Below, one piece after another: positions 30,933 through 57,180 of a stretch of DNA of 64,000 bases. The first letter of the stretch is position 1. Every line of letters starts with the position of its first letter. The notes under the pieces are model-generated. The model did not search any database and had not been told where the DNA came from. It saw only the letters and a list, made by a program, of their open reading frames with translations. Made by a program: the position numbers and the translations under genes. Origin of the DNA: Deltaproteobacteria bacterium (GTDB taxonomy: Bacteria > Desulfobacterota > Desulfobulbia > Desulfobulbales > SURF-16); contig JAOZOY010000002.1 in assembly GCA_029933005.1 (NCBI GenBank), positions 22,694 to 86,693 of the forward strand. The letters run 5' to 3'.

Positions 30933-31085
30933 ATAAATATTCGGCTTGTGTGAAAAAGTTTCAAAAAACTCGGCCTGTAAATGTTTGGATAGTGCCCAAG
31001 TTCGTTCAAGTCGCCTTGCGAGCTATATTAGTCATATGTGAGTAAGGCGAATCGGACGAAATTTGGGTGCTAGCCGAATATTTAC
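30933..31085. mobile_element. hairpin MITE copy B2
   Basis: Termini are ATAAATATTCGGC and GCCGAATATTTAC. Flanks are CTGAAGCC and CTAAAGCC (7/8); similarity continues into ...CCATAAA, so the boundary is ambiguous. Apex is CTATATTAGTCATATGTGAG. Confidence 0.65.
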
Positions 31086-31455
31086 CTAAAGCCATAAAGT
31101 TAGGTTAAGGGAGCATCAAAGTTTGGCAATGAAATTTCTGGATTTTACTTATCACCTGAAGAGTTCAGACAAAAAGCCGCCGGGAGAGATGCAACTTTAT
31201 GTGAAAAAAATAATGCAGCAAATAGGACGCGTTATTTTTATCGTATTTTCAATAGGTTGTCGGTTGGAGATGTTTTTATTTGTTTTTGTCAAGCAACATT
31301 TGAGATGCGCTTATTCAGTGTCTCAGGAAAAAAAGAGGATGTGGAAAAATAAGGTTTGTTTGTTGAATTTGGATAGAAGAATTAACCTATTGTTTTTATT
31401 TAAAATTTAAGATAATTACAATAAAAATTTATTTTAAAGTCTATTAAGTCGGGAT

Positions 31456-31471
31456 TGGCATGATATCTGCG
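31456..31471 (+). promoter_or_regulatory. sigma-54 (-24/-12) promoter with no downstream ORF
   Basis: TGGCATGATATCTGCG: GG at 31457-58 and GC at 31469-70 are separated by exactly 10 nt, and 13 of the 15 defined positions of TGGCAC-N5-TTGC fit. Confidence 0.45.
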
Positions 31472-31482
31472 ATCAATGATCA

Positions 31483-31657
31483 ATAGAATGTAGAAAGACG
31501 CTGAGATAATGTTTTTTCCTCCTTGTTAAAACTCTTGTCTTCCTCCATTCTCCATGGTCCTGAGACGTGAGGGGCAGTTGTTGTATATTGTAGTTCTTTT
31601 GAAGCGTGGTTCATCTTTTGGCATTTCTTTGAAATACCCCTCACGTCTTATTTTTTG
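31483..31657 (+). ncRNA. candidate sigma-54-dependent sRNA (unit 1)
   Basis: Lies between the sigma-54 promoter and a 12-bp perfect stem (AGACGTGAGGGG 31563-74 / CCCCTCACGTCT 31637-48) followed by TATTTTTT. Contains no ORF. Contains the CU-rich stretches UUUUCCUCCUUG and CUUCCUCCAUUCUCC. Confidence 0.35.
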
Positions 31658-31715
31658 AATATCAAAGATATACCGCAGATTTGAGTTCAAGTTCTTTTAC
31701 AGGATAAATTCTACG

Positions 31716-31803
31716 ATTTTTTTGGGTGAACGGTCATGTTCCTCCTTGCCTGGGATCTCTCTCTCTCATGCCTTGCAAGATGACCGTTTGCCTGAATTTT
31801 TTT
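31716..31803 (+). ncRNA. candidate sRNA (unit 2) sharing the UUCCUCCUUG seed
   Basis: A 17-bp stem (31721-37 / 31780-96) includes 4 G-U pairs that can form only in the plus-strand RNA, followed immediately by T7. The loop carries GUUCCUCCUUGCC. A possible TTGAGT-N17-ATAAAT promoter lies at 31681-31709 (weak). Confidence 0.3.
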
Positions 31804-31990
31804 GAGCCCTCTCTTTTTTTCTGCTTTCTTTCCTACCGTATCACAATTTTCTAATGTCAATTTAGTCAGTTATCTTGTCACTATTTGAGTTCCCGTGTGA
31901 ATTCCAATTATAGTGAAGTTAAACAAATTCCTGGGAACTGGTACATAGTTATGAACATTATTTGTAACTGTTCAATAAATGGTGGCAATC

Positions 31991-32030
31991 AAAAAACAAA
32001 TCCCCCTCAATACCCTTTTTTTAAGGGGGA
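31991..32030 (-). terminator. rho-independent terminator ending the minus-strand signalling operon
   Basis: On the minus strand: UCCCCCU-loop-AGGGGGA followed by UUUGUUUUUU. Confidence 0.7.
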
Positions 32031-32046
32031 AGTTGTCGCTACGCTG

Positions 32047-32229
32047 TCAGCGGCCATCTAAAACCAGCACTTCCCCAACCATCTGAAATTGTCTATTTTT
32101 TTCTTCTGTTGTTGAGGTTTTCTTTCGATCTTCTTCCATTTTGAGTCGATCATCAGTCATGGAGGTTGTGACTGATGGACCCAAAAAACTCAAAGAGTAA
32201 CATACGCCACCACTTATTGAAGTTACCAT
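32047..32229 (-). CDS. possible 60-aa protein translationally coupled to the upstream HD-GYP gene
   Basis: The ATG overlaps the HD-GYP stop (TAATG), and the ORF ends just before the operon terminator. No similarity recognised; composition is low-complexity. Confidence 0.3.
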   Translation of the reverse strand: MVTSISGGVCYSLSFLGPSVTTSMTDDRLKMEEDRKKTSTTEEKNRQFQMVGEVLVLDGR

Positions 32230-34109
32230 TATTTCACAAATCTAAAGAGTTTTTTTCTCTGAGTTTTCGCGGTATCCGTGATAGGCGTTTTTTTCAATGA
32301 ATGTTGGCTTGCCGTGGATCGTAAGTTTGGATAATCCGTAAAGAGGTGTCTGTCTTTCAGTTTTTTCCAATCCATGAAATTCGGGGAAGATAGGGCAAGA
32401 GGTTTTTTGTCTTCATATGTTTTTTTAATTTTTTGAAATTCTTTTTCTCTGGCAAGAAAGGCTTCAACAACGTCAGGATCAAAATGTCTGCCCTTTTCTT
32501 CAACAATAACCGCTAATGCTTTCTGGTGGGAAAAGGATTCCTTGTAAGTCCGTTTAGAAGTCAGGGCATCATAGACGTCGGCGAGGGAAACGATTCTTGA
32601 TGATAATGGAATTTCTTCTCCATTCAGACCTTGGGGATAGCCGGAGCCATCCCATTTTTCATGATGGAAATAGGCGATTGTTTTGCCCATGGTCAGAAAT
32701 GACGGGCCGGGAACCTGTCCCTCAATCGCCTTTATAGTGTCGCCGCCAAGCAGGGTATGCTGTTGAATGATTTCAATTTCATCGGGAGTTAATCGGTCCG
32801 CTTTTAACAGGAGATTATCCGGGATGCCGACTTTGCCGATATCATGAAGAATGGAAGACATGTAAATATCTTCAATAAACCGAGTTGAAATATAATCATG
32901 ATATTTTGGCTTTAAGGCCAGTTCCGTGGCGAGTATGCGGCAGAATTCCCTGATTCTCTCCAGATGGTTACCGGAGTTGATATCACGGTATTCCGCCAGG
33001 TTGGCCAAGGAAAGAATTGTTGCGGAGCGGGTTTCCTGCACCCTTGTAAAGGATGCCAGTAACTCTGTTTCCAGCTTTTTTCTGTCTGTGATATCCCTGA
33101 CCAGCATCTGGTATCCAACCAGTGCTTGATCCTTATAAATAGTTGTGGCATTACATTCGACATCAATGATCTGTTTCTGCTTGTTGATGAATCTGAATTG
33201 CAGCCCAGTGACGTTTCGGCCGTCCTGTAACTGTTGTAGAAGAGAGCGCAGCACAGTCTCCTGGTCATCCGGATGGACAAATTCTAGAATGAGATCCCCC
33301 GCTTTTTCATGAGCCGGATCTCCCATGGTTTCGTAGAAACGGGGATTGGCCATGACAATTTTGCCGTCGCGGTCCGTGAGGATGACATCATCACTGATGT
33401 TTTCGTACAGCTTTTGGTAGCGAATTTCAGATTTTTTCAGTTCTTTCGTTCTGTTGGCAACCTCTTCCTCAAGATGATCCGCATGGTAGGAAAGTTGAGC
33501 GGCAAGAGCGTCCTCCTTCATTCGCATATTAAATTCTCTTTTTCTGGCTCGGGACTCTTCCAGGCATTTGACAATAATGATAAGAAGAAAAGAGACGAAG
33601 AAAAAAGTGTTATTGAAAAGTATTTTTAGGTTTGAAGGTGTGAGCTGGTTGTAAATAAAAATCGGTGCCAGGTAAAAAGAATAGACCAGAATCCCTGTTC
33701 CAGCAGCTTGGTATGGATTTAAGGGTAAAATAACGGCACAGACAACAAGAACCATGACCATCCCGATATAATATGAAGAGGTAATACCGCCAAGTTTGAT
33801 GATCATGATTGATATTGTCAGTGCCGAGATAGCATAGGCTGTTATGGCAGTGGAAAAGGGTTGTCTGCGCGAGAAGGAGGTTCTGTTTGCGATATAAATA
33901 CCAAGAAGCGAGAGAGAACACAGAATTCGCAGGATGAAAAAAGACGTGAAGAGTGAGGGGGCTACAACATAATCAAGAATGGAAAAACAAGGAAAGAGAA
34001 AAGCCCCGAACAGAACAGTGGTATTGATTCGTTGATGGAGGAGGGTTCGGGTTTCCTCCTGGTATTTCTGTAGATTGGCGGAAGAGATTTTTTCCATGAT
34101 CAGTCGCAA
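32229..34109 (-). CDS. membrane (6-TM) PAS-domain HD-GYP phosphodiesterase, copy 1
   Basis: N-terminal 6 hydrophobic helices, a coiled coil, a PAS domain, then HDIGKVGIPD ... HHEKWDGSGYPQGL (HD-GYP). Confidence 0.85.
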   Translation of the reverse strand: MRLIMEKISSANLQKYQEETRTLLHQRINTTVLFGAFLFPCFSILDYVVAPSLFTSFFILRILCSLSLLGIYIANRTSFSRRQPFSTAITAYAISALTISIMIIKLGGITSSYYIGMVMVLVVCAVILPLNPYQAAGTGILVYSFYLAPIFIYNQLTPSNLKILFNNTFFFVSFLLIIIVKCLEESRARKREFNMRMKEDALAAQLSYHADHLEEEVANRTKELKKSEIRYQKLYENISDDVILTDRDGKIVMANPRFYETMGDPAHEKAGDLILEFVHPDDQETVLRSLLQQLQDGRNVTGLQFRFINKQKQIIDVECNATTIYKDQALVGYQMLVRDITDRKKLETELLASFTRVQETRSATILSLANLAEYRDINSGNHLERIREFCRILATELALKPKYHDYISTRFIEDIYMSSILHDIGKVGIPDNLLLKADRLTPDEIEIIQQHTLLGGDTIKAIEGQVPGPSFLTMGKTIAYFHHEKWDGSGYPQGLNGEEIPLSSRIVSLADVYDALTSKRTYKESFSHQKALAVIVEEKGRHFDPDVVEAFLAREKEFQKIKKTYEDKKPLALSSPNFMDWKKLKDRHLFTDYPNLRSTASQHSLKKTPITDTAKTQRKKLFRFVK

Positions 34110-34148
34110 TAGTTCGCCGGGGCAATAAATCTTGGTTAATTCTTACGA

Positions 34149-35711
34149 TCAGTCTGGTCTGACCGCCTTTACGAAGAGATTCACTCCCTGCTTTTCCGAC
34201 AGGATTTCGATCTTGTCGGCAAAAGGGCTTTGGGAAAAGATGGCTGTCAGGTCTTCCCGATTGCGATAATGCAGGCGCCATTGGAGGATATGGTCCATAA
34301 ATGGCTGATCCGGATTAGGAGAGAAGTTGCCGACAATGAGAACGCCTCCTGGTTTTAATTGATGATAGCAGCGGGTAATAAAGGCGACAAAGAGTTTATC
34401 TTCCAAATAATCGGTCAAGCCGGCTGAATAGATAATATCCTGCAGACGCATATTATGATTGACCCTTCCCAGAGACCATTTAACCAGATTTTCATTCATC
34501 AGACGGATAGAGGCATTGTGGGGAAAGGTGTTCACATGCTTATTGGTGTATTGCAGAGCCTCTGAGTCAATATCAATGCAGAGTGCCTCGATGGCTTCAG
34601 TGTAGTCGCATTGTCTTAAAAAATCGAAGAGTTCCTGGTTTGGTCCGCAGGCAAGATTCATAATATTGATGATATGGCCTTTTTTGTATTTTTTGTTGCT
34701 GATTTCGGCCAGCTGTCTGCTTAGCAGTTTTCTCCTGCCGCGGATTGCCTTGGAGCCAATGGAATTGAGACACCACTCATCGACAATCACACCGAGTTTC
34801 CCATCTCCGGCCGGTTTGTTCTGGTAAATTTTTTCGATCATCAGGAAGTCACCGGCATAACCTTTGGGCTTGAAATAGACCCGTTCGGCAAAACGACTTC
34901 GCATAAAATAAGGATAAATCTCCTTGAACAGGTAGCCCCAGGCGTAATTTTCCTCATCAAGGTTTTGAATTTCCTTTTTCAGGTTGAGTATCTGGACATA
35001 AAACTGATTCAGGATATTGAGGCACTGCTCCCGGACCTCTTCAGCAATGGCGGTGGATGAGTCTTCCTGCAACCGGTAGGAGATGTTGTACATTTTTCCT
35101 TTGAAATCTTCAACGATTCGATTGACGGAACGCCAGGCCGCTGTTTCGAAAAATTTTTCCGGTAAGGGAGCCGAGTCTTCGTATTTGTCTTTTTTCCTGG
35201 TTGACAGCGAGGCCCCATAAGCCCTGAGAGGTTCCCGCTCTTCCAGAATACGACGGAATTTGATGCAGATTCCCCGGGTGAGCAGATCAAGAAAATAGCC
35301 GTAAAGTAGCGGATTTTCTTTCTGCATGCATTTCATGGTTGATTGATCGAAAACCCTGATTTCGGCATCTTCCGTTATTCGAATGTCACGAACCCGTGAT
35401 CCGCCGTCAAAATAGCCGATTTCACCGAAAAAGTTTCCGGAGCCGATCAGGGCAACGGTTATTTTCGTGTCATGGGCCGTATGGGAAACCTCAATGGAAC
35501 CTTTTTTGACATAATAAAAGGCAGGTTTTTCCGAGTTTTTGGGACGGAATTCCTCTCCAGTCAGAAAGAACAGTGTCCTTGAAAAAGGCAGAACCTCTTC
35601 AACGAGTTGGTCAGGCAGACCTCTCAGAAAATTCAACTCACCGCTACTGGACATTGTTTTATTATTGATTCTATCTTTCTGCGCCGTTTGCATGAAAAAC
35701 TCCTTTGCCAT
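34149..35711 (-). CDS. cyclic-nucleotide-binding domain / class I SAM methyltransferase fusion, copy 1
   Basis: CAP_ED-type motif FFGEIGYFDGGSRVRDIRI near the N-terminus. The C-terminal half has MTase motif I (INIMNLACGPNQEL) and a post-I acidic residue (CIDID). Its start abuts the stop of the upstream HD-GYP gene (35711/35712). Confidence 0.8.
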   Translation of the reverse strand: MAKEFFMQTAQKDRINNKTMSSSGELNFLRGLPDQLVEEVLPFSRTLFFLTGEEFRPKNSEKPAFYYVKKGSIEVSHTAHDTKITVALIGSGNFFGEIGYFDGGSRVRDIRITEDAEIRVFDQSTMKCMQKENPLLYGYFLDLLTRGICIKFRRILEEREPLRAYGASLSTRKKDKYEDSAPLPEKFFETAAWRSVNRIVEDFKGKMYNISYRLQEDSSTAIAEEVREQCLNILNQFYVQILNLKKEIQNLDEENYAWGYLFKEIYPYFMRSRFAERVYFKPKGYAGDFLMIEKIYQNKPAGDGKLGVIVDEWCLNSIGSKAIRGRRKLLSRQLAEISNKKYKKGHIINIMNLACGPNQELFDFLRQCDYTEAIEALCIDIDSEALQYTNKHVNTFPHNASIRLMNENLVKWSLGRVNHNMRLQDIIYSAGLTDYLEDKLFVAFITRCYHQLKPGGVLIVGNFSPNPDQPFMDHILQWRLHYRNREDLTAIFSQSPFADKIEILSEKQGVNLFVKAVRPD

Positions 35712-37436
35712 CTACTGGACAAGAATAGACATCCTGGTTTTTTTGAAGACATGCTCCTGAACTGCAAAGGCTTCCACCACGGCGGGAGCAAAATGTTTTC
35801 CTTTTTCGGCGAAAATGATTTTCCTGGCCTCTTCATGGGTCATGGAGGGTTTGTAACATCTTTTTGATGTCAGGGCGTCATAAACATCGGCCAAGGAGAC
35901 AATGGCTGCGGATAAGGGAATTTCACCGTTTTTCAGTCCCTGGGGATATCCGCTGCCATCCCATCTTTCATGGTGATAATAGGCCACCTCTCTGCCGATG
36001 GTTAAAAATGTCTTCCCTTTTATTCGAGATTCAAGATCACTGAGGGCATCACCGCCGATAATGGAATGAAATTTCATGATGTTGAATTCTTCCGGGGTGA
36101 GTTTGTCGGGTTTGAGAAGGATCGCATCCGGAATGCCTACTTTGCCGATATCATGCAAAATGGAAGAAAGATAAAGATCATCAGTATAATCCTGATTGAT
36201 GATATTAGCATATTCCGGGTATCCAGCCAGTTCTTCACAGATAATCCTGGTGTATTCCCGGATTCTTTCGAGGTGATTTCCAGTCTCATGATCCCGTGAC
36301 TCCACAAGTTTTGCCAGACCGAATATCGCGGCTGTTCTGGAGGTGTTGATCTCTTCTTGGGAGCGAACAAGCTCGGATTTCATTTTGTTTCTTCTGGTAA
36401 TATCTCTGGCCACTAATTGATAACCGATAAATTGTCCGTCTTTGTTAATTGTTTTGGCATTACATTCAATGTCCGCCTTTTTCAGGTTCCCGTTCAACAT
36501 TTTAAACTGAAAATCTTTGATATCCTGGCCTGACATCAGACCGGCCAACAGGTCCTGTTTTACCCTGGCAACATCTTCATCATCAACGAAATCAAAAAAA
36601 GATACACCTGCGACATCTTCACGTCTTTTTTTAAGAAAATTATAAAAATGGGGGTTAGCCATAAGTATTGTCCCATCATGATCCAGCAGAATGACAGGAT
36701 CCAGAATATTATCATACAGTTTTTTGTAGCGCAGTTCGGATTCTTCGATTTCCTTAAGCTGTTTTTCAACCTCTTCTTCCAGGTGATGCGTGTAATAAGA
36801 TAACTCCCCGGTCAGCTTTTTGAGCTTTATTTTTAGATTAAATTCTCTCACCCGTCCTTTGAGCTCTTCATGGCACTGGACAATACCAATCATGGCAAAT
36901 GCAAAAAGAAAAAAAGTATTGTTGAAGAAAGTATTAAAATTTTCAGGGCTGGTTTTTAAAAAAGTAAACGGATCGAGATAGCAGGGAACGGTATAGATGA
37001 GCAGAAGAATAATTCCTGAAAAAATTGCCTGGAAAAAATGAAGCGGCAGGATGGCAAAATAGCCCACCAGGATAAGGAGCGGGCCGGCATAATAAAAATG
37101 TCCGCTATGGCCGATTTTGAGGATCATCAGGACAAGGATAAAGCTGCCAATCGCGCAGAATGTGATGGCAATGAGAAAGGAAGAAATTAGTTTTTTATGA
37201 TGCAGCAGAAGAAAGCCGGCCATAAGTAATGAAAAAAAGATGCGATATTGAGCAAAGAGAATAAAATGTTCTCTGGCCATGACAAAGTCAAGAATGGAAA
37301 AAAACGGAAAGAAAACAATGCCAAGCCAGAGCAGGGCCGTAACTCTTTGACGAAGGAGATCTTCAGTCTCTTTTGTAAAGAGTTTCAGATGTTTTTTTTC
37401 AATGCCCAGGGAAGGGGCTGACCAGGATAGGTTCAT
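35712..37436 (-). CDS. membrane (6-TM) PAS-domain HD-GYP phosphodiesterase, copy 2
   Basis: Same architecture as 32229..34109: HDIGKVGIPD ... HHERWDGSGYPQGL. Confidence 0.85.
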   Translation of the reverse strand: MNLSWSAPSLGIEKKHLKLFTKETEDLLRQRVTALLWLGIVFFPFFSILDFVMAREHFILFAQYRIFFSLLMAGFLLLHHKKLISSFLIAITFCAIGSFILVLMILKIGHSGHFYYAGPLLILVGYFAILPLHFFQAIFSGIILLLIYTVPCYLDPFTFLKTSPENFNTFFNNTFFLFAFAMIGIVQCHEELKGRVREFNLKIKLKKLTGELSYYTHHLEEEVEKQLKEIEESELRYKKLYDNILDPVILLDHDGTILMANPHFYNFLKKRREDVAGVSFFDFVDDEDVARVKQDLLAGLMSGQDIKDFQFKMLNGNLKKADIECNAKTINKDGQFIGYQLVARDITRRNKMKSELVRSQEEINTSRTAAIFGLAKLVESRDHETGNHLERIREYTRIICEELAGYPEYANIINQDYTDDLYLSSILHDIGKVGIPDAILLKPDKLTPEEFNIMKFHSIIGGDALSDLESRIKGKTFLTIGREVAYYHHERWDGSGYPQGLKNGEIPLSAAIVSLADVYDALTSKRCYKPSMTHEEARKIIFAEKGKHFAPAVVEAFAVQEHVFKKTRMSILVQ

Positions 37437-37564
37437 GTAATGCGCTTATCGGGTAACAGAATATTTATCAATTTTGTCTGCATTTTTTGGTAACCATTCA
37501 GAATGCAGATTTTAAAAACTAATAGTCTTTAGTCTACAGCCTAACCACCTGAATAGTAAGCATT

Positions 37565-39121
37565 TTATTTAGTGGCCAGAGCAAAAAGGTTCACCTGTTC
37601 AGGTTCGGAGATGATTTGGACATTTTTGCCAAAGGGAGTGTTTAAAAAAAGTTCTCTTAATTCGTCTTCGGTTCGGTAGATCAGTTTCCAGTTCAGGATA
37701 TGATCCATGAAGTACTGGTCGACACAAGGAGCAAAGTTGCCAATCACCAGTTGACCTCCCGGTTTCAAGTGCTCATGACATCGGCTGACAAGGGCCTGGA
37801 ATAGTTTTCGGTCCAGGTAGTCGCTGAGTCCGGCTGAATAGATGATGTTCTGCATGCCGATGTTGTGGCTCACTTTTCCCAAGGCCCATTTGACCAGGTT
37901 TTCGTTCATGAACCGGATTGAAGCCATGTGGGGAAAGGTGTTGACATGTTGATTGGTGTATTGCAGAGCCTCGGAATCAATGTCTACACAGAGGGCCTCA
38001 ATTTTTTCGCTGTAATCACAATTTGATAGAAAATCAAACAGTTCCCGGTTTGGTCCACAGGCAAGGTTCATGATTTGAATTGTATCGCCCTTCGCTAGCT
38101 TTTGGCGGCTGATTGTTTCCAACTGGCCGCATAACAGTTTACGGCGTCCTCGTATTGCCTTTGTGCCGGGTCGCTGGAGACACCAGGCATCGACGAGTTT
38201 GCCGATTTTCCCCTCGCCTTCCGGTTGATTCAAGTAGATATGCTCCATCATCAGAAAATCACCGGCATATCCTTTTGGCTTGTAATAGGCTCTTGCTGCA
38301 AATCGGCTACGCATGATAAAGGGAAAAGCTTCTTTAAAGAGATACCCCCACAACACGTTTTTATCTTCAGGGCGTTTCAGGAGGTTTTGGAAATTACCAA
38401 GATTGTCGCTGAAATCGTCCAGTATGGAGTAGCATTCCGAACGGTGATCCTCGGAGATTTCCGGGGTTGAATCTTTTTGCAGGGCATAAGAGAGGTCAAA
38501 GATACGGGATTTTATTTTTTCAATATGTTGATTGATCAAATGCCATTCATCGGATTGCAGTAATGTCTTCGGTATGGGTTTTGACTCTGTATAATTCCGG
38601 CTCCGGCGCGGTGCCGAAAGAGAGGCGGCATAGCTGGCCAGGGGATCCCGTTCTTCCAGGACGCGGCGGAATTTTTTGCAGATGGATCGGGCTAGATAAC
38701 TGATGAAATTGCCATAAAGAACAGGATCCTGCTCTTGAAGATCAAGCAAGGAATTTTCGCTGAATACTCTGATGTTGGAATCCTGAACGGCTTTAATGTC
38801 ACGAACCCGGGAGCCGCCGTCAAAAAAACCAATTTCTCCAAAAAATTGCCCGGCGCCGATTAGAGCTACGGTAATTTTTGTCCCCTTGTCGGTATATGAG
38901 ACTTCTATCGCGCCTTTGAGGACATAATAGATTGATCTCTGTTCTTCTCCATGCAGTTCCAGGGGATCATTTTTGCGACAGAAAATTTCTGTAGAAAAAG
39001 GGAGAATACTCCGTATGGTTTTATTTGTAAAAGCCAGGAGTGATCTTTTTGGCTTTGATGTCTGGATTGCTGGCCCCATTTTGTTCCTTTTTCGAGAAAG
39101 ACAGACCCTCTTTTTTATCAT
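37565..39121 (-). CDS. cyclic-nucleotide-binding domain / class I SAM methyltransferase fusion, copy 2
   Basis: Paralogue of 34149..35711 (FFGEIGFFDGGSRVRDIKA; IQIMNLACGPNREL; CVDID). The start could instead be the internal MGPAIQ. Confidence 0.8.
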   Translation of the reverse strand: MIKKRVCLSRKRNKMGPAIQTSKPKRSLLAFTNKTIRSILPFSTEIFCRKNDPLELHGEEQRSIYYVLKGAIEVSYTDKGTKITVALIGAGQFFGEIGFFDGGSRVRDIKAVQDSNIRVFSENSLLDLQEQDPVLYGNFISYLARSICKKFRRVLEERDPLASYAASLSAPRRSRNYTESKPIPKTLLQSDEWHLINQHIEKIKSRIFDLSYALQKDSTPEISEDHRSECYSILDDFSDNLGNFQNLLKRPEDKNVLWGYLFKEAFPFIMRSRFAARAYYKPKGYAGDFLMMEHIYLNQPEGEGKIGKLVDAWCLQRPGTKAIRGRRKLLCGQLETISRQKLAKGDTIQIMNLACGPNRELFDFLSNCDYSEKIEALCVDIDSEALQYTNQHVNTFPHMASIRFMNENLVKWALGKVSHNIGMQNIIYSAGLSDYLDRKLFQALVSRCHEHLKPGGQLVIGNFAPCVDQYFMDHILNWKLIYRTEDELRELFLNTPFGKNVQIISEPEQVNLFALATK

Positions 39122-39488
39122 GACCGCAAATTGACGTCAGGTATTGGTCAGTCAGGAAAATGGTGAGAGTCGTATATTTTTTTTATTAAAGATTACCAGA
39201 ATTATGCTAACCTTTTAAATTTTTTATAAAAACAAAGAGTATATTTATAATTTTCCTGAATTAGAAACGAATTGTCAACATATTAATCCGGATCAACCCA
39301 TAAAAAGTTTTTTTTACCACGGAGAATGAGGATTTCAAGAGAAATTTTCTTGATCATAATTAGTTAGTTCAACGATTTTTTGGGTGAATTTGTTAGTTTT
39401 TATGAGAGAATCATATAACATTTTGTTGCGGGAGTTTTGCGGTAGAGATTGTTCTGGATGAGTGATGCAGAAGTTAGGTGCAGCCGGG

Positions 39489-40532: not shown

Positions 40533-40545
40533 GGCTCTTTATCTC

Positions 40546-41166: not shown

Positions 41167-41269
41167 TGTTTTCTTGTCCTGTATCGTGTTATTCTTTGAA
41201 AATTTTTTTGAGAATAAAAATTTACTTACTATGATGATGGATAAGTTAATAGTCAATAGTAAATTTTTT

Positions 41270-41329
41270 GTAATTATTCAGGTGGCCCATCAAATTGGCA
41301 TAACCACTGTTCTGCTCCTGAACAGTTAC
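41270..41329. mobile_element. minimal MITE copy C2
   Basis: Termini are GTAATTATTCAGG and CCTGAACAGTTAC. A perfect 8-bp direct repeat AATTTTTT sits at 41262-41269 and 41330-41337. Confidence 0.7.
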
Positions 41330-41362
41330 AATTTTTTGATCTTTAATAACAGGTTGTGAACC

Positions 41363-42307: not shown

Positions 42308-42333
42308 TTGAGGATTGTGGAGTGAGAAGCGAG

Positions 42334-42984: not shown

Positions 42985-43004
42985 CTGTTGAATCAGCCAT
43001 GAAG

Positions 43005-43043: not shown

Positions 43044-43060
43044 CAAAAGAGATAACATCA

Positions 43061-44974: not shown

Positions 44975-45004
44975 GAAGACAGAAGTCAGGAGATAGAAGA
45001 TATC

Positions 45005-47489: not shown

Positions 47490-47599
47490 GAGAGACCTCT
47501 GGTGTTAGATTAGAACCCATGACAAAAAGGCGAATGTCCAGGGATCGAGCGTAAAGAGCTGACAGTCAACGTCATGACCAGACCCGGCAGAATGGGTCA

Positions 47600-49582: not shown

Positions 49583-49620
49583 TGTCCGTGAATATCTTTT
49601 CCGGGTCAGCGATCAGAAAA

Positions 49621-49692
49621 GCGGCACCTGTGAACGCTTACAGAATAAGGAGTTACTCGAAAGCTTGGTGATTTCACCCCGTGATTGGTTAC
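49621..49692. mobile_element. 5'-truncated MITE fragment (3' arm only)
   Basis: GGCACCTGTGAACGCTTAC followed by ...ATTTCACCCCGTGATTGGTTAC. This parallels the 3' part of A1 (GGCACTGGTAAACGTTTAC...GGTGAACGGTTAC). Confidence 0.4.
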
Positions 49693-49800
49693 GTAATCGC
49701 TGACAGAGCAATGGGCTGCTCAGGTTTGTCCTATTTTATTCTGCAACAGGTTCTCTTTCCGGAAGGGCGAAAATGAAACTATTTTCACGAAATTGAGCTG

Positions 49801-50682
49801 CTATTTTCCGAAAATTCCGCGTAGAGCATCCATGCCCTTCTGCATAGCATCCTGCATGTCCTGACCTTCTGTGCCCTCGGCAGGCCTCGTGCTTCCCCCG
49901 GACTTTGTCCCGGAGCTCATGGAAGATGGAGGCATTGTGCTGTGTTGACCGATACTGGCTTGCGCTTTGTCCGGGTCAAGAAGCATTTCAATGGTCTGTT
50001 TTGCTATGGTGCGGGCCATCTGGTCAGCCTCTGGGTCATGTTCCAGCTTGATGCCGGCCGGCGGGATGAAAACATTTTTCGGCGCAGAATTCTTATCGAT
50101 TCTGGTGGCTATGGACTGGAAATTCATGCCCGCCACACTGGTTTCTGATTTCAGCGGCAGCCCGGTTTTGTTTATCATGTAAATTGTCGAACCCATGAAA
50201 GAAATTTTATCACAGGAATAACCGAGAATTTTTGTCGCGTTTTTTTCAATTTCACCTTGGGTGCCGTTGATGGCGGACTGGCCAAGTTTTTCGGAATTTT
50301 TAATAAGTTTTTTTCGGTCACTCCTGGAAAGACTGTTGTACTCCTCAATCATATACTTGGTCGGGTTGACGGATTTTTTACCGGTTTTTTCCTGCATGTC
50401 GATGGTATAGATCCACTCCGGTGTAACAATTCGAATGGTCTCGGTTTTTGTTGTCATGAAAAATATTTTTGTGGTCGTGTTTCGGTATGTGGCCTGTTCC
50501 TTGCCATAGTTGCGGATGTAGAGCGTTTCGCTGCCGTTTTCCGAGCCGGTTATCGAATAATTGATAGTAGCATTTTTGAAAGGGAGCCTGGTGTCCCAAG
50601 GGTTTTCCCCGGCCAGAACCGGAGCCGTAATCAGAAGGTTCAGAATCAGAATACGCAGCAGGAAAGAAAAAGATTGTGCCAT
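49801..50682 (-). CDS. exported hypothetical protein
   Basis: N-terminal signal sequence (LLRILILNLLITAPVLAG). No motif recognised. Ser/Gly/Met-rich C-terminal tail. Confidence 0.6.
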   Translation of the reverse strand: MAQSFSFLLRILILNLLITAPVLAGENPWDTRLPFKNATINYSITGSENGSETLYIRNYGKEQATYRNTTTKIFFMTTKTETIRIVTPEWIYTIDMQEKTGKKSVNPTKYMIEEYNSLSRSDRKKLIKNSEKLGQSAINGTQGEIEKNATKILGYSCDKISFMGSTIYMINKTGLPLKSETSVAGMNFQSIATRIDKNSAPKNVFIPPAGIKLEHDPEADQMARTIAKQTIEMLLDPDKAQASIGQHSTMPPSSMSSGTKSGGSTRPAEGTEGQDMQDAMQKGMDALRGIFGK

Positions 50683-50826
50683 GACAGTTGTACTCCTTGT
50701 CGTTGGGAAATTTGGTGGAATTTTATTATTAAGTACTTAAAAAATCATATACAAATTGATCTTTTTTTTCCATTGTTATTTTCTTCTGTGTCTCAGGGTT
50801 GAAAAAACAATTTTTACCAGTTCATC

Positions 50827-51010
50827 GTAATTGTTCAGATGGGACCACCAAATTGGTCAAATTACAATTCCGTAACTGTTCAGGGCGATAGGCTCCAGGC
50901 TGGACGGCAGGAGAAATGAGATTGTACACTGGAGTGATGTAACGAGAAACGCCGCAGATTTCGAAAATTAATAACTTTTGGCCGACAGCCTGAGCAATCT
51001 GAATAGTTTC
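50827..51010. mobile_element. two adjacent MITE units (C3 + A6)
   Basis: GTAATTGTTCAG at 50827 and GTAACTGTTCAG at 50872, with CTGAATAGTTTC ending at 51010. An internal imperfect palindrome is present (ggctccaggctggacggc / gccgacagcctgagc). No clean flanking duplication. Ends 6 nt from the EamA gene stop. Confidence 0.5.
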
Positions 51011-51016
51011 GAGGTG

Positions 51017-51883
51017 TTAACCGAAAAGAGCGATAAGCATGGCGCCGCAAAACATGAGCAGCGCTCCCAGGCCCCGGGATCTGATGTTGGTTTCTTTCAA
51101 AATGAACGAGCTCAGGATAATGGAAAAGAGAATGCTGCTTCTTTTAACCGTGATCATGTATACAGCAGTGGTGAGCATGATCGCCAGACCGTGGCAAGCC
51201 ACATGGGTTGTCAGCAGGCTGCCTAAGAGTAAACCTTTTCTGCTGTTTTTGATGATTGATGACCAGTTTGTCTGTTTGAAAATAAAGAGGCCGAATAACA
51301 GAGTAATGTTGAAAATCAGAAAGAAGAAAAAAGTGAAAAAAAGTGGTGAGGAATGAATCATGCTTTTTTTGCCCACTACGGCGGCAAAAGAGAAAATGAA
51401 AGCCACACCGAGCATGAGAAGGGAGCCTTTTTCCCGCAGGATGGATTTGAAGGGTTCCAGAAGGCCTTTTTTTAAACTGGAAAAGTTCAGCAGATAAGTG
51501 CCGCCGACAATGAGCCCGACACCGGTTATTCCCCATGAGTTTACGGTTTCATCAAGGATAAAGGAACCGGTGAGCAGAATGAAAAGCGGAGTAAAGGCCA
51601 GAAAGGGAACGGTCAGGGACAGAGGTGAGAGTTTGAGGCTGTAGAGATAAAGAATATATGCCAGCCAGTTGATGGGCAGAGAGAGAAAAAAGGACCACCA
51701 GAAGGTCTGATCCAGAACAGGAATGTTGATAAAAAGACAACCGATAATCAGAAAGGGCAGGGACCAGAACAGCTCAAGAGCTGCGATTTTCTGGATTCTC
51801 AGATCACGGCAGAAAATTTTTACGGATGTATCCCGGACAGCGACACATAAAGCGGTGAGCAGAGAGAGAAAAAACCAGGTCAT
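51017..51883 (-). CDS. EamA/DMT-family transporter
   Basis: Ten hydrophobic helices in two similar halves, 288 aa. Confidence 0.8.
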   Translation of the reverse strand: MTWFFLSLLTALCVAVRDTSVKIFCRDLRIQKIAALELFWSLPFLIIGCLFINIPVLDQTFWWSFFLSLPINWLAYILYLYSLKLSPLSLTVPFLAFTPLFILLTGSFILDETVNSWGITGVGLIVGGTYLLNFSSLKKGLLEPFKSILREKGSLLMLGVAFIFSFAAVVGKKSMIHSSPLFFTFFFFLIFNITLLFGLFIFKQTNWSSIIKNSRKGLLLGSLLTTHVACHGLAIMLTTAVYMITVKRSSILFSIILSSFILKETNIRSRGLGALLMFCGAMLIALFG

Positions 51884-51903
51884 TGCAGGATAGGTTCCAT
51901 ATT

Positions 51904-54900
51904 TTACCGTTCCCTTAACAATTGCAACAACTCCTTGCTGTTGATCTGTCCACCTACATCTATATTGTTGAGCAGGCTGTCGGCCAGAGTTCTTTTTTCC
52001 CGGTGCAGATTAACGATTTTTTCTTCAATGGAGTTTTTTGTGACCAGGCGGTAGATGGTTACCGGTCGTATCTGGCCAATGCGGTGAGCTCGATCCGATG
52101 CTTGATCCTCCACGGCTGGATTCCACCAGGGATCCATGTGGATCACGTAATCGGCTGCAGTCAGGTTGAGACCCAGGCCACCGGCCTTGAGGCTGATCAG
52201 AAAAAGGTCGCCCGTCCCTGTCTGAAACCCGTTGATCTGCTGTCTCCTTTCCCTGGCCGTGGTGGAACCATCCAGGTAGCAGTAACTGATTTTTTTATTA
52301 TCAAGAAGTTCCCTTAAAATGGTCAGGTGACCGACAAATTGACTGAAAACCAAGACTTTGTGCCGATTTTCCAGAAGTTCATCAATCACCTTGCTGAAAA
52401 GATTCAGCTTGGAACTTGGGATGTCGCAGTCTTTGGCTACCAGCCTGGGGTGGCAGCAGGCCCGGCGCAGTCTCATGAGTTCCGCCAGAATACGCATATG
52501 TTTCTGGCCGGCAGGAACTGTGTGTGTTTCGATTTTCTCGACGGCCTCCCGCCTGAGAGCCTCGTAGAAGGCTGTTTCCTCGGGACTCATCTCAACCCGT
52601 AGGGTAATTTCCGTTTTCGGCGGCAATTCTTCAAGAACCTGGGATTTTAGACGACGCAGAATGAACGGGCTGATCAGTTTTTTGAGTTTGCGCTGAGCCG
52701 TCCTGTCCTGGTAGCGCTCGATGGGCAGGCGGTATTTTTTATTAAATCGCTCAAGGCTGCCAAGGAGGCCGGGGTTGATGAAGTTGAACAGGTTCCATAA
52801 TTCTCCGAGATGATTTTCGATAGGGGTGCCGGTGGTGATCAGTTTAAATTCCCCCTGCAGCGACATGGCTGCCTTGCTTCGTTTTGTCGCCATGTTTTTG
52901 ATGGCCTGGGCTTCATCAAGGATAATCACCTGCCAGTGGACAGCGGTCAGCAGTTTGATTTCCTGCTGCAATAAACCATAACTGATAATGACTACATCGA
53001 AGGGCTGCAGGGAGGTGACCTGCTCGGAGCGGTTTTTCCCGCCAAAAAGATTGACATTCAAGGTCGGGCTGAAACGGTTCATCTCAGCCTGCCAGTTCAG
53101 GCAGACCGACATAGGCGCCACCACCAGGGAGGGCCCCAGACCCGCCCTGTCCAGTATGACGGCCAGTCCCTGGATTGTTTTTCCTAGACCCATGTCATCG
53201 GCCAGGCAGGCCCCGGCTCCCCAGTGGGCAAGGCGGGCCAGCCATTGATATCCTTCAACCTGGTAATCGCGGAGCTGGGCCTGCAGGGTTGATGGGATGC
53301 TAGGCAGGAATTCCCGTACCTCGTGCACCCGCTTGAGCATGTCAATCCATTGTTGATCCGTGTCAAGATGAAAGGGTTTTTCGTTGATATTTTCAAGAGC
53401 GGCCGCGGCCAGTGGGTGAAGACGAATTTTATTGCCCCGATCTTCTCCAAAAAAGTTGATTTCTTCAAGCTGTTTGCGGAAGTTCCGGGAAAGGACGATA
53501 TACTGGCCATCTTCCAGTGGGACAAATTTGCTGGAACTGTTACGGACAAGGGACAAAAGGCGTCGCATATTCAAGACCTTATCATCGTCAAGATGAAGCT
53601 TTCCCTGGAGCTCAAACCAGTTATTTTTTTTGCGGATTTGCAAATGGCAATGTTCAAAAGAGACCTGTTGTTTCAGCTTCAGTTTTTCTCCTTCCGGCCA
53701 TTCAACCGTGATTTCTCCCTTGATTTCCCGGAGCTCCTGCAACAACTGCAAACATTCCTCAACTTTTTGAATTTCCCATTCCCAGTCCGAGTTTTCCAGA
53801 TTGGTCAGGATGGAACATTTTGATTCTATTTTTCGGCAATTCTGAATTTCAAGCTCAAGATTTCTCTTGGCCTGCAATCGTTGACCGTCAATTTCGGCAA
53901 TGATATTTTCGCTGCCTCTGCCCGGATTCAGGTAGGGGCCGCCGTCGGCAAATGGTTTGATCAGCATGGTCAGCCTGAATCCCGTCCCCACTGGCAGGAG
54001 ATGAATGATAATTCTGGAATTCGCCGTAACTTTTTTAACATTTTTTGCAACATCGCCAATAGCTGAATGGATAGTTATGCAGGTTGACAGATTGCCAAGG
54101 GACTGCATGACCTGTTCTTTGGCCGCCAGCGGAACAAGCAGGCCCTCTTCACCCATGATAGACGCAATTCTCCGGTGCTCTTTCGAGATTTCAATGATTC
54201 GGAAACGGTTTGGGGTTTCACGAATTGCCATGACTTTGTCAGCAAAAATGTCGGGAAAAATCTCAAGATGAAGTTGATTGTTTTCTTGTCTGACTCTGAG
54301 TTCTGGTTCTCCCTTGATGAGTTCAACCGGAACTGTCGGCACGTCGGCGAGAAAGAGGTGCGGATGGCCGATCAGGGCCGGCAGGGCCTCAGTCATATTG
54401 AAATCATAGGAGATGGAATGAAATGAGCGGGTTTTTTTGAGCGATCGGCAGACTTTCTGATCCTGAGCAGTTAGAAAATCCAGTTTTTGGCCGCTGTTGA
54501 GACGCTGCAGGGCAACAGGTCTTCCTTTGCTCCAAAATCCTTTTGCGTTTAATTTCTGTTCTTTCGGAGTGATGGTGACAAAGCCGTGTTCATAGTGGAT
54601 CATCCAGGCCAGTCGTGATTGGGATACCTGATCTTTTTGTGGAGGCGCGATCAGCGCGTTTAATGCCTTCAGGGCGCGTTGCCACTTTTCTTCCTGTTTG
54701 AGCGTCGGAAAGATGGAAATGATGTTGTTTTGACGTCTGAAATCCTCTGCGAATTTGCGAAAAGAATCATCCCTCCCAGATTGGTGGAGCAGTTCTGCAT
54801 ATTCCATGGCCAGGAGGGAATAGCCGTTCCGGTGGGCCTTTTGAAAACAGGAAGAAAGTATTTCCTGTTGTTCTGCCGTCAGATGGCCATTGATCCAGAA

Positions 54901-56010
54901 ATAGGCCAGTCCCTGGATCAGGACGGTCAGGCTGTCTTCAGGCTTATCCTGCTGGCAGGAAAAATAATGCGGGTCAGCAAGAGATTCCTGGTGGGAGACA
55001 ACGTCCGCCAGCACTGTGTAGGCAGGCAGAAACAGGTTGTGGGGCTGGATAGCGGCTATGTTTGTGACAAGGGATTTGATTTTTGGGTAAAGGGTATAAT
55101 CTCCGGCTTTGATCATTGCCAGAATAAAAAACAGTCCTTCCGGACCGGTAAAAAAAATATGCCGTTGCCCCTGAATTTTTTTTAGTTTTTTGAGATCGTC
55201 TTTAAAATGAAGAATGGCTTTGTCGTTTTTGCCTTGGAGAAAAGCCAGCCAGCCCAATAGTCCGAAACCTTCCATCCCGTCGCCGGCCCGGCGTAGTAAT
55301 TCAACAGCCAGGGTTGTTTCTCCCCGCCACAGGAGGTTTGAAATGAGCAGATAATAAAACGAGCTGATGCCTTCCGCAGGGATCTCTCCCTTTCTTTCTT
55401 TGTCACGTAGGAAATTCAGGGGGCCGTCACAGGGTACCAGCCGCAGGAGGGAATAATTTAAGATTTCATGGAGTCCGTGGAGTTGCAGATGATCAGGCAG
55501 GGTGGCAAACCATCTTCCGTCAAAGGGATTATTCAGGATGGAGACCAGCGGTGAGGATTCCTCCGAAACATCCGGACATTGATAATATTTGGATAAACTG
55601 TTGTTGAAGAGGTCGAAATTCGCTGTGTAAAGGCCGATACGAACATCACGGAGATAACGGATGGATGTGTTCTCGGCAGGCATCTCCTGGCGGACAATTT
55701 TGGCAAGATGATTATAAAGTCCTTCCGTAACAGCCTGCTGGCTGAGGATTTCGACTATGGAGTCGTTACACTGAAATTTCCAGTTGAGCAGGAAATTGTT
55801 CTGGAGATGTCGAATGGATTCAGAGAGGCTCCTGTCTGGTGGCTCGTCGGTTTTGATCAGAGCAGGATCCGATTTGTCCAGACAATGATTAATTACACTT
55901 ATCTTTATCGGTTCATAGATGATCGAGATCATATAGAGGATAATTTTCTCATGACGCGGCAGGCTGTTAAAGGCTGCAGGAAGTTTGTCGGCGGCGTAGT
56001 TGTTGTTCAT
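51904..56010 (-). CDS. SNF2/Rad54-family helicase with a ~900-aa N-terminal region of unknown function
   Basis: The C-terminal ~470 aa carries the SNF2 motifs: LADDMGLGKT (I), DEAQAIKN (II), TGTPIEN (III), a helicase C domain, and WWNPAVEDQASDRAHRIGQ (VI). Confidence 0.85.
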   Translation of the reverse strand: MNNNYAADKLPAAFNSLPRHEKIILYMISIIYEPIKISVINHCLDKSDPALIKTDEPPDRSLSESIRHLQNNFLLNWKFQCNDSIVEILSQQAVTEGLYNHLAKIVRQEMPAENTSIRYLRDVRIGLYTANFDLFNNSLSKYYQCPDVSEESSPLVSILNNPFDGRWFATLPDHLQLHGLHEILNYSLLRLVPCDGPLNFLRDKERKGEIPAEGISSFYYLLISNLLWRGETTLAVELLRRAGDGMEGFGLLGWLAFLQGKNDKAILHFKDDLKKLKKIQGQRHIFFTGPEGLFFILAMIKAGDYTLYPKIKSLVTNIAAIQPHNLFLPAYTVLADVVSHQESLADPHYFSCQQDKPEDSLTVLIQGLAYFWINGHLTAEQQEILSSCFQKAHRNGYSLLAMEYAELLHQSGRDDSFRKFAEDFRRQNNIISIFPTLKQEEKWQRALKALNALIAPPQKDQVSQSRLAWMIHYEHGFVTITPKEQKLNAKGFWSKGRPVALQRLNSGQKLDFLTAQDQKVCRSLKKTRSFHSISYDFNMTEALPALIGHPHLFLADVPTVPVELIKGEPELRVRQENNQLHLEIFPDIFADKVMAIRETPNRFRIIEISKEHRRIASIMGEEGLLVPLAAKEQVMQSLGNLSTCITIHSAIGDVAKNVKKVTANSRIIIHLLPVGTGFRLTMLIKPFADGGPYLNPGRGSENIIAEIDGQRLQAKRNLELEIQNCRKIESKCSILTNLENSDWEWEIQKVEECLQLLQELREIKGEITVEWPEGEKLKLKQQVSFEHCHLQIRKKNNWFELQGKLHLDDDKVLNMRRLLSLVRNSSSKFVPLEDGQYIVLSRNFRKQLEEINFFGEDRGNKIRLHPLAAAALENINEKPFHLDTDQQWIDMLKRVHEVREFLPSIPSTLQAQLRDYQVEGYQWLARLAHWGAGACLADDMGLGKTIQGLAVILDRAGLGPSLVVAPMSVCLNWQAEMNRFSPTLNVNLFGGKNRSEQVTSLQPFDVVIISYGLLQQEIKLLTAVHWQVIILDEAQAIKNMATKRSKAAMSLQGEFKLITTGTPIENHLGELWNLFNFINPGLLGSLERFNKKYRLPIERYQDRTAQRKLKKLISPFILRRLKSQVLEELPPKTEITLRVEMSPEETAFYEALRREAVEKIETHTVPAGQKHMRILAELMRLRRACCHPRLVAKDCDIPSSKLNLFSKVIDELLENRHKVLVFSQFVGHLTILRELLDNKKISYCYLDGSTTARERRQQINGFQTGTGDLFLISLKAGGLGLNLTAADYVIHMDPWWNPAVEDQASDRAHRIGQIRPVTIYRLVTKNSIEEKIVNLHREKRTLADSLLNNIDVGGQINSKELLQLLRER

Positions 56011-56214
56011 TTGGGATGTTGTGATAATAGGAACTTTGCGCTCTCTGAGTCTCTACGTTGAGAAAACAGTTTTTATGAGGTCATCAAGATGAGGTACTTT
56101 GTTTTTCTGTCGATGTTGTCATTTTATCAGTATACCATATAATAGATGAACCATATAGATGAACTGTTTGACTCTATTGTAAAAAAGCAAAGAAAACAAC
56201 AGTGGGGTGATTGA

Positions 56215-56970
56215 ATGGAAATAACCTTTCTCGGGGTTGGCGAGGCCTGTGACTGCAGCTATCCAAACACATCGATATTGCTGAAAAGTGATATTGGCCG
56301 GAGTTTTCTTCTCGACTGTGGTTTTACCGTGCCCCATGAGTACTTTCGGTTCTGTACTGATCCGGACGAACTGGATGCTTTGTGGATTTCTCATTTTCAT
56401 GGAGATCATTTTTTTGGGGTTCCACTGCTGCTTCTCAGGTTTTGGGAGATGGGCAGAATTAAACCTTTGCAGATTATCGGTCAATTTTGCGTTGAAAATA
56501 AAATTCAGGCGGTCATGGATCTGGCCTATCCGAATTTTGGCAAAAAATTGCAGTACGATCTTGAATTTGTGAACATCGATTTTGGAGAATCTTTAGTGGT
56601 TTCGGATCTCGGGCTGAGAACTGCCGAAATCTCTCATTCCCAACCCTGTCTGGCCCTGAGACTTGATGAGGGTGAAAAGAGTTTGTTCTACAGTGGTGAC
56701 GGCCGGCCTACGGCGGCAACTCTGGAGCTGGCGCATGGTTGTAACCTTGTTATCCATGAGGCTTTCAAGTTGTCGGATGAGGTGCCCGGCCATGGTAGTG
56801 TGCGTGGCTGTCTTGATTTCTGTCGCAGGGCCCATGCGTATCGGCTTGCTCTGGTTCATCTGAATCGTCAGGTCAGGCGGGAGGAGATAGATCAAATACG
56901 GGTCATGATTGACACTGCTTCCGGCTTGGATGCTTTTCTGCCGGAACCTGGAGATGTTGTTAAACTTTGA
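56215..56970 (+). CDS. MBL-fold metallo-hydrolase (RNase Z/ElaC-like)
   Basis: HFHGDH metal motif, and further His/Asp (DGRP, HEA, VHLN) at the expected spacing. Confidence 0.8.
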   Translation: MEITFLGVGEACDCSYPNTSILLKSDIGRSFLLDCGFTVPHEYFRFCTDPDELDALWISHFHGDHFFGVPLLLLRFWEMGRIKPLQIIGQFCVENKIQAVMDLAYPNFGKKLQYDLEFVNIDFGESLVVSDLGLRTAEISHSQPCLALRLDEGEKSLFYSGDGRPTAATLELAHGCNLVIHEAFKLSDEVPGHGSVRGCLDFCRRAHAYRLALVHLNRQVRREEIDQIRVMIDTASGLDAFLPEPGDVVKL

Positions 56971-57024
56971 TGTTTTATTAAATTTCTAATTGCTTGAATC
57001 TGCAAGAATTTTCCAAAAAGACGA

Positions 57025-57180
57025 GTAAATATTCGGCTAGCACCCCATCTTTGAACGATCAGGCCTACTCGCATATGAATCAATATAGCTCACAGACCTG
57101 ATCGTCCAAATATGGGCCACTATCCAAAATTTACATTTCGGTGGTTTTTGTAATAATTTATTATCAAGCCGAATGTTTAC
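57025..57180. mobile_element. hairpin MITE copy B3 (inverted relative to B2)
   Basis: Termini are GTAAATATTCGGC and GCCGAATGTTTAC. A perfect 8-bp direct repeat AAAGACGA sits at 57017-57024 and 57181-57188. The first 21 nt are identical to the reverse complement of the B2 3' end. Confidence 0.75.

Follow-up and report, generated by a model that had tools for sequence, protein, structure and literature searches.

The 64,000-nt stretch of DNA analysed here (the window; element coordinates are window positions), from contig JAOZOY010000002.1 of the Deltaproteobacteria bacterium assembly GCA_029933005.1, carries a family of small, non-coding, dispersed repeats. In the window they are found around cheB/ogt, tatC, fliD/fliC, sat/aroB, the gene of a PEP (phosphoenolpyruvate)-utilising enzyme, an MBL-fold gene and EamA, and all copies are intergenic. 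The first-pass annotation, made from the sequence alone, had picked out seven of these repeats as long imperfect palindromes, had named them MITEs (miniature inverted-repeat transposable elements) lying just after stop codons, and had suggested for them a role at the RNA level. All seven are indeed long imperfect palindromes, each where it had been placed, and their identity as MITEs was confirmed by terminal inverted repeats (TIRs) and 8-bp target duplications. We show here that the hairpin of these elements is kept by compensatory change on one strand only, and that individual copies decay neutrally.

Window copies and element anatomy

A full element consists, in this order, of T1, an arm, an asymmetric apex, a second arm, T2, a spacer of 30-34 nt and T3, where T1, T2 and T3 are the names given to the ends. 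T1 is the terminal inverted repeat GTAAnnnTTCAnn, followed by 2-3 nt and then GCACC, and was used to orient the elements. T2 is an internal inverted copy of T1, and pairing between T1 and T2 forms the base of an imperfect hairpin of about 108 nt. A second inverted copy of T1, T3, is located about 31 nt beyond the hairpin (GTAACTATTCAGC / GCTGAATAGTTAC is an example of a T1/T3 match). The description of the elements as simple palindromes therefore holds for the hairpin, but full copies extend to this third end, as in A1 (1937-2109). The canonical length in related genomes is 152 nt (47 + 16 + 45 + ~31 + 13), and copies range in size from 36 to 200 bp. Scanning the window with the terminus motif GTAAVYRTTCR, which occurs 17 times against 0.43 expected, uncovered additional copies and solo ends. 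The elements and element parts in the window are as follows:

1937-2109 (+), A1, full element; T1 1937-1949, hairpin 1937-2067, apex 1988-2003, T3 2097-2109; flanks 1929-1936 and 2110-2117 forming a perfect target duplication of 8 bp, CAGCCTTT
6425-6611 (+), degenerate copy near tatC; T1 lacking its first bases, apex ATAGCACAAGT split by an insert, T3 CCTGAATAGTTAC; flanks GATTTAAA / GATTTAAT matching at 7/8 positions
8569-8677 (+), A2, hairpin-only copy (T1...T2) of 109 nt between fliD and fliC; apex 8617-8632; perfect target duplication GGAAAAAT on both flanks
13152-13300 (-), B1, folded strand +; core 13172-13281, outer ends unrelated (GTGTCTGTCCAGAAATAGG); no 8-bp duplication in the flanks
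27134-27169 (terminus motif on both strands), 36-bp mini-copy of two facing ends only; flanks CTGCCGGG / CTGTCGGG matching at 7/8
30569-30725 (+), A3, full element with 85% identity to A1; left end mutated (GTATACG), one arm partly deleted; no target duplication in the flanks
30933-31085 (-), B2, full element; T1 ends at 31085, hairpin 30977-31085, T3 30933-30945; target duplication CTGAAGCC / CTAAAGCC matching at 7/8
41270-41329 (-), 60-bp copy without hairpin (T1 stub, spacer, T3); perfect target duplication AATTTTTT
50832-50871, end-plus-spacer fragment adjoining the following element
50872-51009 (+), element with family-type ends (GTAACTGTTCAGG ... CTGAATAGTTTC), non-palindromic interior and uncertain membership; no target duplication in the flanks
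57025-57180 (+), B3, full element; T1 at 57025, hairpin 57025-57134, T3 57168-57180; perfect target duplication AAAGACGA
58416-58608 (+), A4, hairpin copy with extra modules inserted; apex 58486-58501; no target duplication in the flanks
30362-30374 (+), 31964-31976 (+), 37490-37502 (+), 49629-49641 (-) and 59620-59643 (+), solo ends with the terminus motif
2061-2088 (+), 30676-30703 (+), 57130-57157 (+) and 30964-30936 (-), predicted outward promoter signals

The distances to neighbouring genes in the first-pass annotation were correct. The degenerate copy begins 9 nt past the tatC stop codon (6414-6416), A1 abuts the ogt stop codon (its right target duplication overlaps it), A2 is located between fliD and fliC, B1 follows the sat terminator, B3 starts 55 nt after the stop codon of the MBL-fold gene, and the element at 50872-51009 stops 7 nt short of the EamA stop codon at 51017. 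B3 separates the stop codon of the MBL-fold gene, at 56970, from a hairpin at 57194-57215 that resembles a terminator and has a T-run, and the 3' untranslated region (UTR) of that gene now includes the entire element.

The 8-bp target duplications enclose T1...T3. In the window, they are perfect in four copies (A1, A2, B3 and the 60-bp copy) and match at 7/8 positions in three (B2, the tatC copy and the 36-bp copy), and among canonical copies in other genomes they are perfect in 15/18 and match at 7/8 in 2/18. The end GTAAGCGTTCACC, which is IS66-like, was found in A4 and at many loci, other subfamilies having GTAAAC, GTAACT or GTAAAT. Members of the insertion sequence (IS) family IS66 have 20-30-bp inverted repeats (IRs) beginning GTAAGCG and direct repeats of 8 bp (PMC11946415). 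The reference IS66 from an E. coli plasmid (L115, NZ_CP124491, annotated at 2096-4624; 2529 bp) has GTAAGCG...CGCTTAC ends and the duplication AGAAGGTT. Since they share with IS66 the GTAA(GCG) ends and the 8-bp target duplication, the repeats are non-autonomous transposons (MITEs) with IS66-type ends, which differ from IS66 in having no transposase and a length of only 36-200 bp. The perfect duplication around A2 indicates that T1...T2 alone can be mobile. The hairpin-less copy at 41270-41329, which sits between divergent genes and whose spacer matches that of L067-type full copies, is also perfectly duplicated at its flanks. No description of IS66-derived MITEs, or of the present repeat family, was found in the literature searched.

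A 17-nt module, GGTAAGCGTAGACTCCG, which includes the IS66 heptamer GTAAGCG, was observed in A1, A4, L003, L034, L045 and others, where it occupies one arm or both and its positions mirror each other exactly; in A1, both arms carry it as a 17-19-nt GTAAGCG..GACTCCG module. Copying from arm to arm, a very small nested element or a footprint could each account for it.

A hairpin kept by compensatory change on one strand

B2 and B3 have opposite orientations and share the identical 21-nt end GTAAATATTCGGCTAGCACCC, and their differing inner arms each pair with their own partner arm, all as had been proposed; the inner arms are only about 60% alike. Structural alignment of the two elements revealed seven pairs changed on both sides and still paired. 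The main point of the first-pass annotation, that subfamilies keep pairing as arm sequence changes, holds even more strongly than put forward: in an alignment of 31 hairpins, RNAalifold predicted 44 pairs, with compensatory double changes in 29/44. Standard pairs occupied 95.3% of the cells, versus 82.3% after column shuffling and 33-43% with slid partners, and the covariation score of 0.463 (0.219 in shuffles) was reached by 0/500 shuffles.

The pairing is specific to one strand. The folded strand is the anti-T1 strand, that is, the one read from T3 to T1. G·U-type cells number 224 on this strand (in 25/44 pairs) versus 12 on the T1 strand, and standard pairing amounts to 95.3% versus 79.7%. 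Changes between C-G and U-A go via U·G (pairs 28/87, 30/85, 21/94 and 46/71), and equivalent A·C intermediates between Watson-Crick pairs were almost never seen. A tandem UG/GU (columns 17-18/97-98) is present in 28/31 sequences. Among the window copies, the minimum free energy was lower on the anti-T1 strand in 6/7, and a covariance model built from the 31 canonical hairpins scored this strand about twice as high: 81.7 bits (- strand) versus 32.4 (+ strand) for A2, 77.4 (+) versus 32.8 (-) for B2, and 85.4 (-) versus 41.5 (+) for B3. A1 and A3 were matched on the - strand with 51.5 and 53.1 bits, respectively, A4 only partially (58467-58519, - strand), and B1, a 72% palindrome, with 31.8 bits (E=3.5e-6) and solely on the + strand. 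Covariation exceeding palindromic duplication had been named beforehand as a check. The covariation found does go beyond a DNA palindrome, because it is strand-specific and a duplex palindrome, facing protein sites and arm-to-arm conversion are all strand-symmetric. Since G·U is tolerated on one strand and the A·C equivalent almost never occurs, these results imply a folded single strand, for which RNA is the natural candidate.

Selection on this fold does not act at single insertions. In five tight subfamilies, single substitutions private to one copy were counted at Watson-Crick pairs: 16 yielded A·C, 13 G·U and 16 other mismatches. This split indicates that mutation is strand-symmetric and that individual copies are unprotected. 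The idea that a strand bias of mutation (deamination) produces the G·U asymmetry was rejected on the same grounds. Subfamily consensus states, by contrast, comprised 108 G·U versus 9 A·C (51 versus 2 in clusters of at least three copies). Given that the private states are symmetric and the consensus states are not, the strand asymmetry must arise when copies found new subfamilies. Individual copies thus undergo neutral decay regardless of pairing, so that no function is preserved at each locus, and we infer that only copies keeping the anti-T1 fold proliferate and found new subfamilies, selection acting on the proliferating source copies.

The apex is conserved as well. As had been noticed, ATAGCACCAGTATGCT is shared by the four elements starting at 1937, 8569, 30569 and 58416; it occurs exactly four times in the window (1988, 8617, 30620 and 58486), against 0.34 expected at up to 3 mismatches. 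The second apex type of the first-pass annotation, 'TATATTAGTCATATG-like', is weak as a string match, but the structure model does place B1, B2 and B3 in one family; B1 has the hairpin core and apex class common to the family together with unrelated outer ends. Among 43 additional copies from the same loci and the window, which were not selected by apex, three related apex classes were distinguished (folded-strand notation), each a small covarying stem with a loop of 4-5 nt. Class A is AGCAU-ACUG-GUGCU; its loop can also read ACUU, ACUA or ACCA, and its small stem shows changes from U·G to U-A or from A-U to G·U. Class B is AUAU-UAGUC-AUAU or AUAG-UAGUC-CUAU, and class C is GUAU-UAGUC-AUAC. 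One apex can be found with widely different arms. Three chimeric copies combine arms from different subfamilies with the junction at the apex (L113 3322-3429, L064 ~2243 and L056 3025-3132), which suggests that copies recombine or undergo template switching there and indicates that recombination contributes to the mosaic.

Explanations for the folded strand

These MITEs with IS66-family ends are probably mobilised in trans, and their one-strand fold probably serves the transposon. According to this explanation, an IS66-type DDE transposase acting in trans would mobilise them, making the 8-bp target duplications; copies keeping the one-strand fold would found new subfamilies; and the fold would serve the transposon's own propagation or regulation rather than host genes. 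The preferred form of the folded strand is a putative RNA stem-loop read from T3 to T1, somewhat favoured over a hairpin in single-stranded DNA (ssDNA) because G·U pairs are frequent (about 16% of consensus pairs) and a tandem UG/GU is conserved. MITEs with foldable transcripts are well known, and their structure is usually credited to effects on host genes. The present data separate two levels of selection, in that subfamily founders keep one-strand pairing and insertions decay symmetrically and in random orientation, and this two-level pattern points to a function for the transposon itself.

Several points weigh against this explanation. About 0.6 Mb of related sequence, plasmids, viral contigs and one metagenome pattern scan yielded no autonomous IS66 with matching ends. 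In the loci, there were no TIR pairs 0.7-4 kb apart with matching duplications and no repeated open reading frames (ORFs) as a sign of a parent IS, and both a TnpB motif scan and tblastn with the E. coli IS66 proteins were negative. Plasmid blastn for an autonomous parent was also negative, viral contigs gave chance matches only, and the metagenome pattern (T2 plus the back-translated LLPW C-terminus of TnpC) gave one chance match, inside an ORF. Since assemblies of metagenome-assembled genomes (MAGs) usually lose multi-copy IS elements, this failure is weak evidence. No convincing or consistent promoter for the folded strand was seen. The sole conserved promoter-like signal faces the other way, on the T1 strand and outward via T3: it resembles a sigma-70 promoter, with the T2 end as -35 (TTTACA/GTTACA) and a -10 in the spacer, and was detected by the scanner in A1, A3 and B3. 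A TAnnnT hexamer is located 14-17 nt downstream in 9/15 distinct spacers versus 1.6 in shuffles, and the signal may drive transcription via T3 into flanking DNA. In addition, most loci were gathered by exact apex match, so that the apparent apex conservation is inflated, and the private-substitution sample is small (45 events from Watson-Crick pairs). Finally, the ssDNA form remains plausible because G·T is the most stable, that is, the least destabilising, DNA mismatch.

The role at the RNA level suggested in the first-pass annotation would have the hairpins co-transcribed with the upstream gene and kept as 3'-UTR stabilisers, terminators or RNase processing sites. The strand-specific covariation fits such a role in that it denotes a folded single strand, and so do the several window copies located within 10-60 nt of a stop codon, the position of B3 between a stop codon and a terminator, and the precedent of the Bacillus bcr1 repeats, whose transcription and compensatory changes have been described (PMC3184786). 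Gene context, as counted over 113 copies with ORF-based neighbours, speaks against it. The well-paired strand would be the product of read-through from an upstream gene in 42 cases and the opposite strand in another 42, an exactly random orientation. Adjacent gene ends are 3' in 84 and 5' in 82, so that a location just after stop codons does not hold as a rule; within 150 nt the figures are 46 (3') versus 31 (5'), p=0.11, and B1 is itself closer to the aroB start than to the sat stop. Pair-breaking A·C is as frequent as G·U in individual copies, which leaves single insertions unconstrained, and no U-run follows the hairpin on either strand. The copies thus show no association with host genes, proximity to a stop codon is often expected of any insertion tolerated in a compact genome, and we consider a function in host transcripts unlikely. 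An effect of replication on orientation was also rejected, copies being divided 31:29 relative to local GC skew. As to the window itself, GC skew is positive in all 2-kb bins (1-64000), and the whole of it apparently belongs to one replichore with a G-rich + strand.

With ssDNA as the folded form, T1 and T2 would fold at the replication fork or in a transposition intermediate into a duplex 'end' read by the transposase or a host factor. Selection on proliferation rather than on loci agrees with such a function in transposition, the putative transposase-binding repeat itself forms the stem base, and the T1-T2 hairpin can be mobile on its own, as A2 with its perfect duplication indicates. A link to replication forks is provided by the IS66 TnpC and TnpB peptides, which bind the beta sliding clamp (PMC3971601). 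G·T pairs, tolerable as they are in DNA, number 5-9 per 45-bp stem including the conserved tandem, which is unusual for known ssDNA recombination hairpins and typical of RNA. The perfect duplication of the hairpin-less copy at 41270-41329 means that the hairpin is not strictly required for insertion, and orientation shows no GC-skew bias, though none is strictly predicted. We regard the ssDNA hairpin as plausible but less likely than the RNA. An explanation with no single-strand function at all, in which a duplex palindrome is kept by two facing transposase sites and arm-to-arm gene conversion and the apex reflects recent descent or recombination, could draw on the mirrored 17-nt module in one or both arms, on the chimeras that break at the apex (L113, L064 and L056) and on the ascertainment effect behind part of the apex conservation. 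Duplex processes are, however, strand-symmetric, and the observed 224:12 cells and 108:9 consensus states are not, with mutation itself symmetric (16:13); this explanation is very improbable. Finally, integron attC sites share with the MITEs a conservation of structure over sequence, the folding of one strand and a location after stop codons, features that could make the repeats attC sites or REP/RAYT-type repeats instead of DDE-mobilised MITEs. Unlike the MITEs, attC sites lack TIRs and target duplications, form cassette arrays and depend on the integron integrase. The present copies have 8-bp target duplications and TIRs, are single and dispersed among housekeeping genes rather than arranged in cassette arrays, contain no RYYYAAC/GTTRRRY boxes, and measure 108-152 nt instead of the 20-40 nt of GC-rich REP sequences. 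Both the attC and the REP/RAYT assignments were rejected on the basis of target duplications and genomic context, and deserve practically no credence.

Returning to MITEs whose fold serves the transposon, IS66 itself offers a parallel. The right IR of the E. coli and Serratia copies of IS66 has an inverted copy next to it, inside the element, and pairs with this copy as T1 does with T2 in the MITEs. The resulting E. coli right-end stem-loop consists of AUAAGCGUCAA, a loop with GGUGCU, and UUGACGCUUAC, its internal copy overlapping the tnpC stop codon. The Serratia copy forms such a stem-loop too, and a third reference copy does not. GGTGCT beside the end is common to the reference IS66 and the MITEs, the stem being about 45 bp with a conserved apex in the MITEs versus 8-11 bp in IS66. 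At the left end of E. coli IS66, a hairpin at IS nt 47-84, just before the tnpA ATG, is much more stable on the antisense strand, where it contains three G·U pairs, and its loop CUAUAUCAG resembles the B apex; the left 150-nt end folds with -41.7 kcal/mol on the antisense strand versus -25.7. Neither the right-end stem-loop nor the left-end antisense hairpin of E. coli IS66 was found described in the literature searched. According to the right-end parallel (T2/T1), the folded strand would be the transposase sense strand. These leads, together with the outward promoter-like signal on the T1 strand, give conflicting answers as to which IS end, left or right, T1 represents. As a possibility that we rate as less likely than not, a folded nucleic acid specific to one strand and encoded at the element end may be needed for IS66-type transposition or for its control. 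The structure would then be a ~108-nt stem-loop with a tandem UG/GU, an apical tetra- or penta-loop and the terminal repeat as stem base, of which the MITEs would be minimal carriers. If true, RNA or ssDNA would be needed for one step in a family of DDE transposons that has TnpA and TnpB as accessory proteins. The defined hairpin, strand, tandem G·U pairs and apex variants provide a testable handle on the poorly understood IS66 family.

Among described repeats, bcr1 from the Bacillus cereus group comes closest: it is a dispersed mobile MITE-like repeat of ~155 bp with direct repeats, in which compensatory changes keep a predicted RNA fold (PMC3184786). It differs from the MITEs in its 5-bp direct repeats, its host phylum and its cruciform-like two-stem fold, and its transcription has been shown experimentally, whereas any transcript of the MITEs is putative. 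The strand-specific G·U asymmetry and the master-copy selection found for the MITEs were not among the bcr1 features compared. The resemblance to ERIC, REP and Correia elements put forward in the first-pass annotation is an analogy only, since ends, target duplication and host range differ and there is no Rfam match. ERIC/IRU and Correia (NEMIS) elements are, like the MITEs, multi-copy intergenic imperfect palindromes of 100-160 bp, foldable as RNA when co-transcribed, but they belong to other sequence families, live in Enterobacteria and Neisseria (Delihas review) and have no Rfam or sequence match to the MITEs. The roles proposed for them concern host transcripts, which the MITE orientation data do not support. 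In Correia elements, the TIRs measure 26 bp and the duplication is TA. RNA-OUT, an antisense control of IS10, is an imperfect stem-loop RNA from a transposon end; its fold contains many G·U pairs and mismatches and is important in regulating the element itself. The MITEs differ in being non-autonomous and in having the terminal repeat within the hairpin, and their RNA is putative.

Distribution of the family and other features of the DNA

Scanning 185,579 species genomes for the 16-nt apex yielded at least 114 loci. Among the matches listed, about 89 were true copies. These came without exception from MAGs of Desulfobulbaceae/Thermodesulfobacteriota, with bins of Desulfocapsa, Desulforhopalus and Desulfobia among them, and about 32 further matches were chance 16-mers in unrelated taxa. 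The covariance model detected 113 distinct copies in 0.55 Mb (fetched loci plus window) and can be used to annotate the family. These results show that the repeat family has spread and diversified within Desulfobulbaceae. Many copies are located at contig ends, which makes this 8-bp-duplicating family a major reason why contigs of Desulfobulbaceae MAGs break off. No synteny was detected between the window and the fetched loci, and for an empty-site comparison of orthologous loci the MAGs were too divergent (about 70-75% nucleotide identity in genes). Rfam gave no match at the gathering score and, below threshold, only generic long-hairpin microRNA models; a tRNA/tmRNA scan gave none.

At least three other palindromic repeat families occur in Desulfobulbaceae MAGs (e.g., L018 5525-5704, L031 5913-5986 and L034 3978-4064), with the ends AGGGCTCACTCAAAAATAA (~180 bp), GTAGGAGCCCGCCC (~75-85 bp) and CGTCATTCCGGCATG (~87-108 bp). 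Elsewhere in the window, 32229-39121 (-) contains a tandem duplication of a two-gene unit with about 60-65% nucleotide identity, one gene coding for cNMP-binding and methyltransferase domains and the other for PAS and HD-GYP-type HD_5 domains. A heptanucleotide tandem repeat, TGGCTTA/TGGCTCA, of about seven units is located upstream of tatC (5558-5606), and a 48-nt AT-rich near-perfect palindrome (62100-62147; 88% complementary, no spacer) lies in a low-GC intergenic region.

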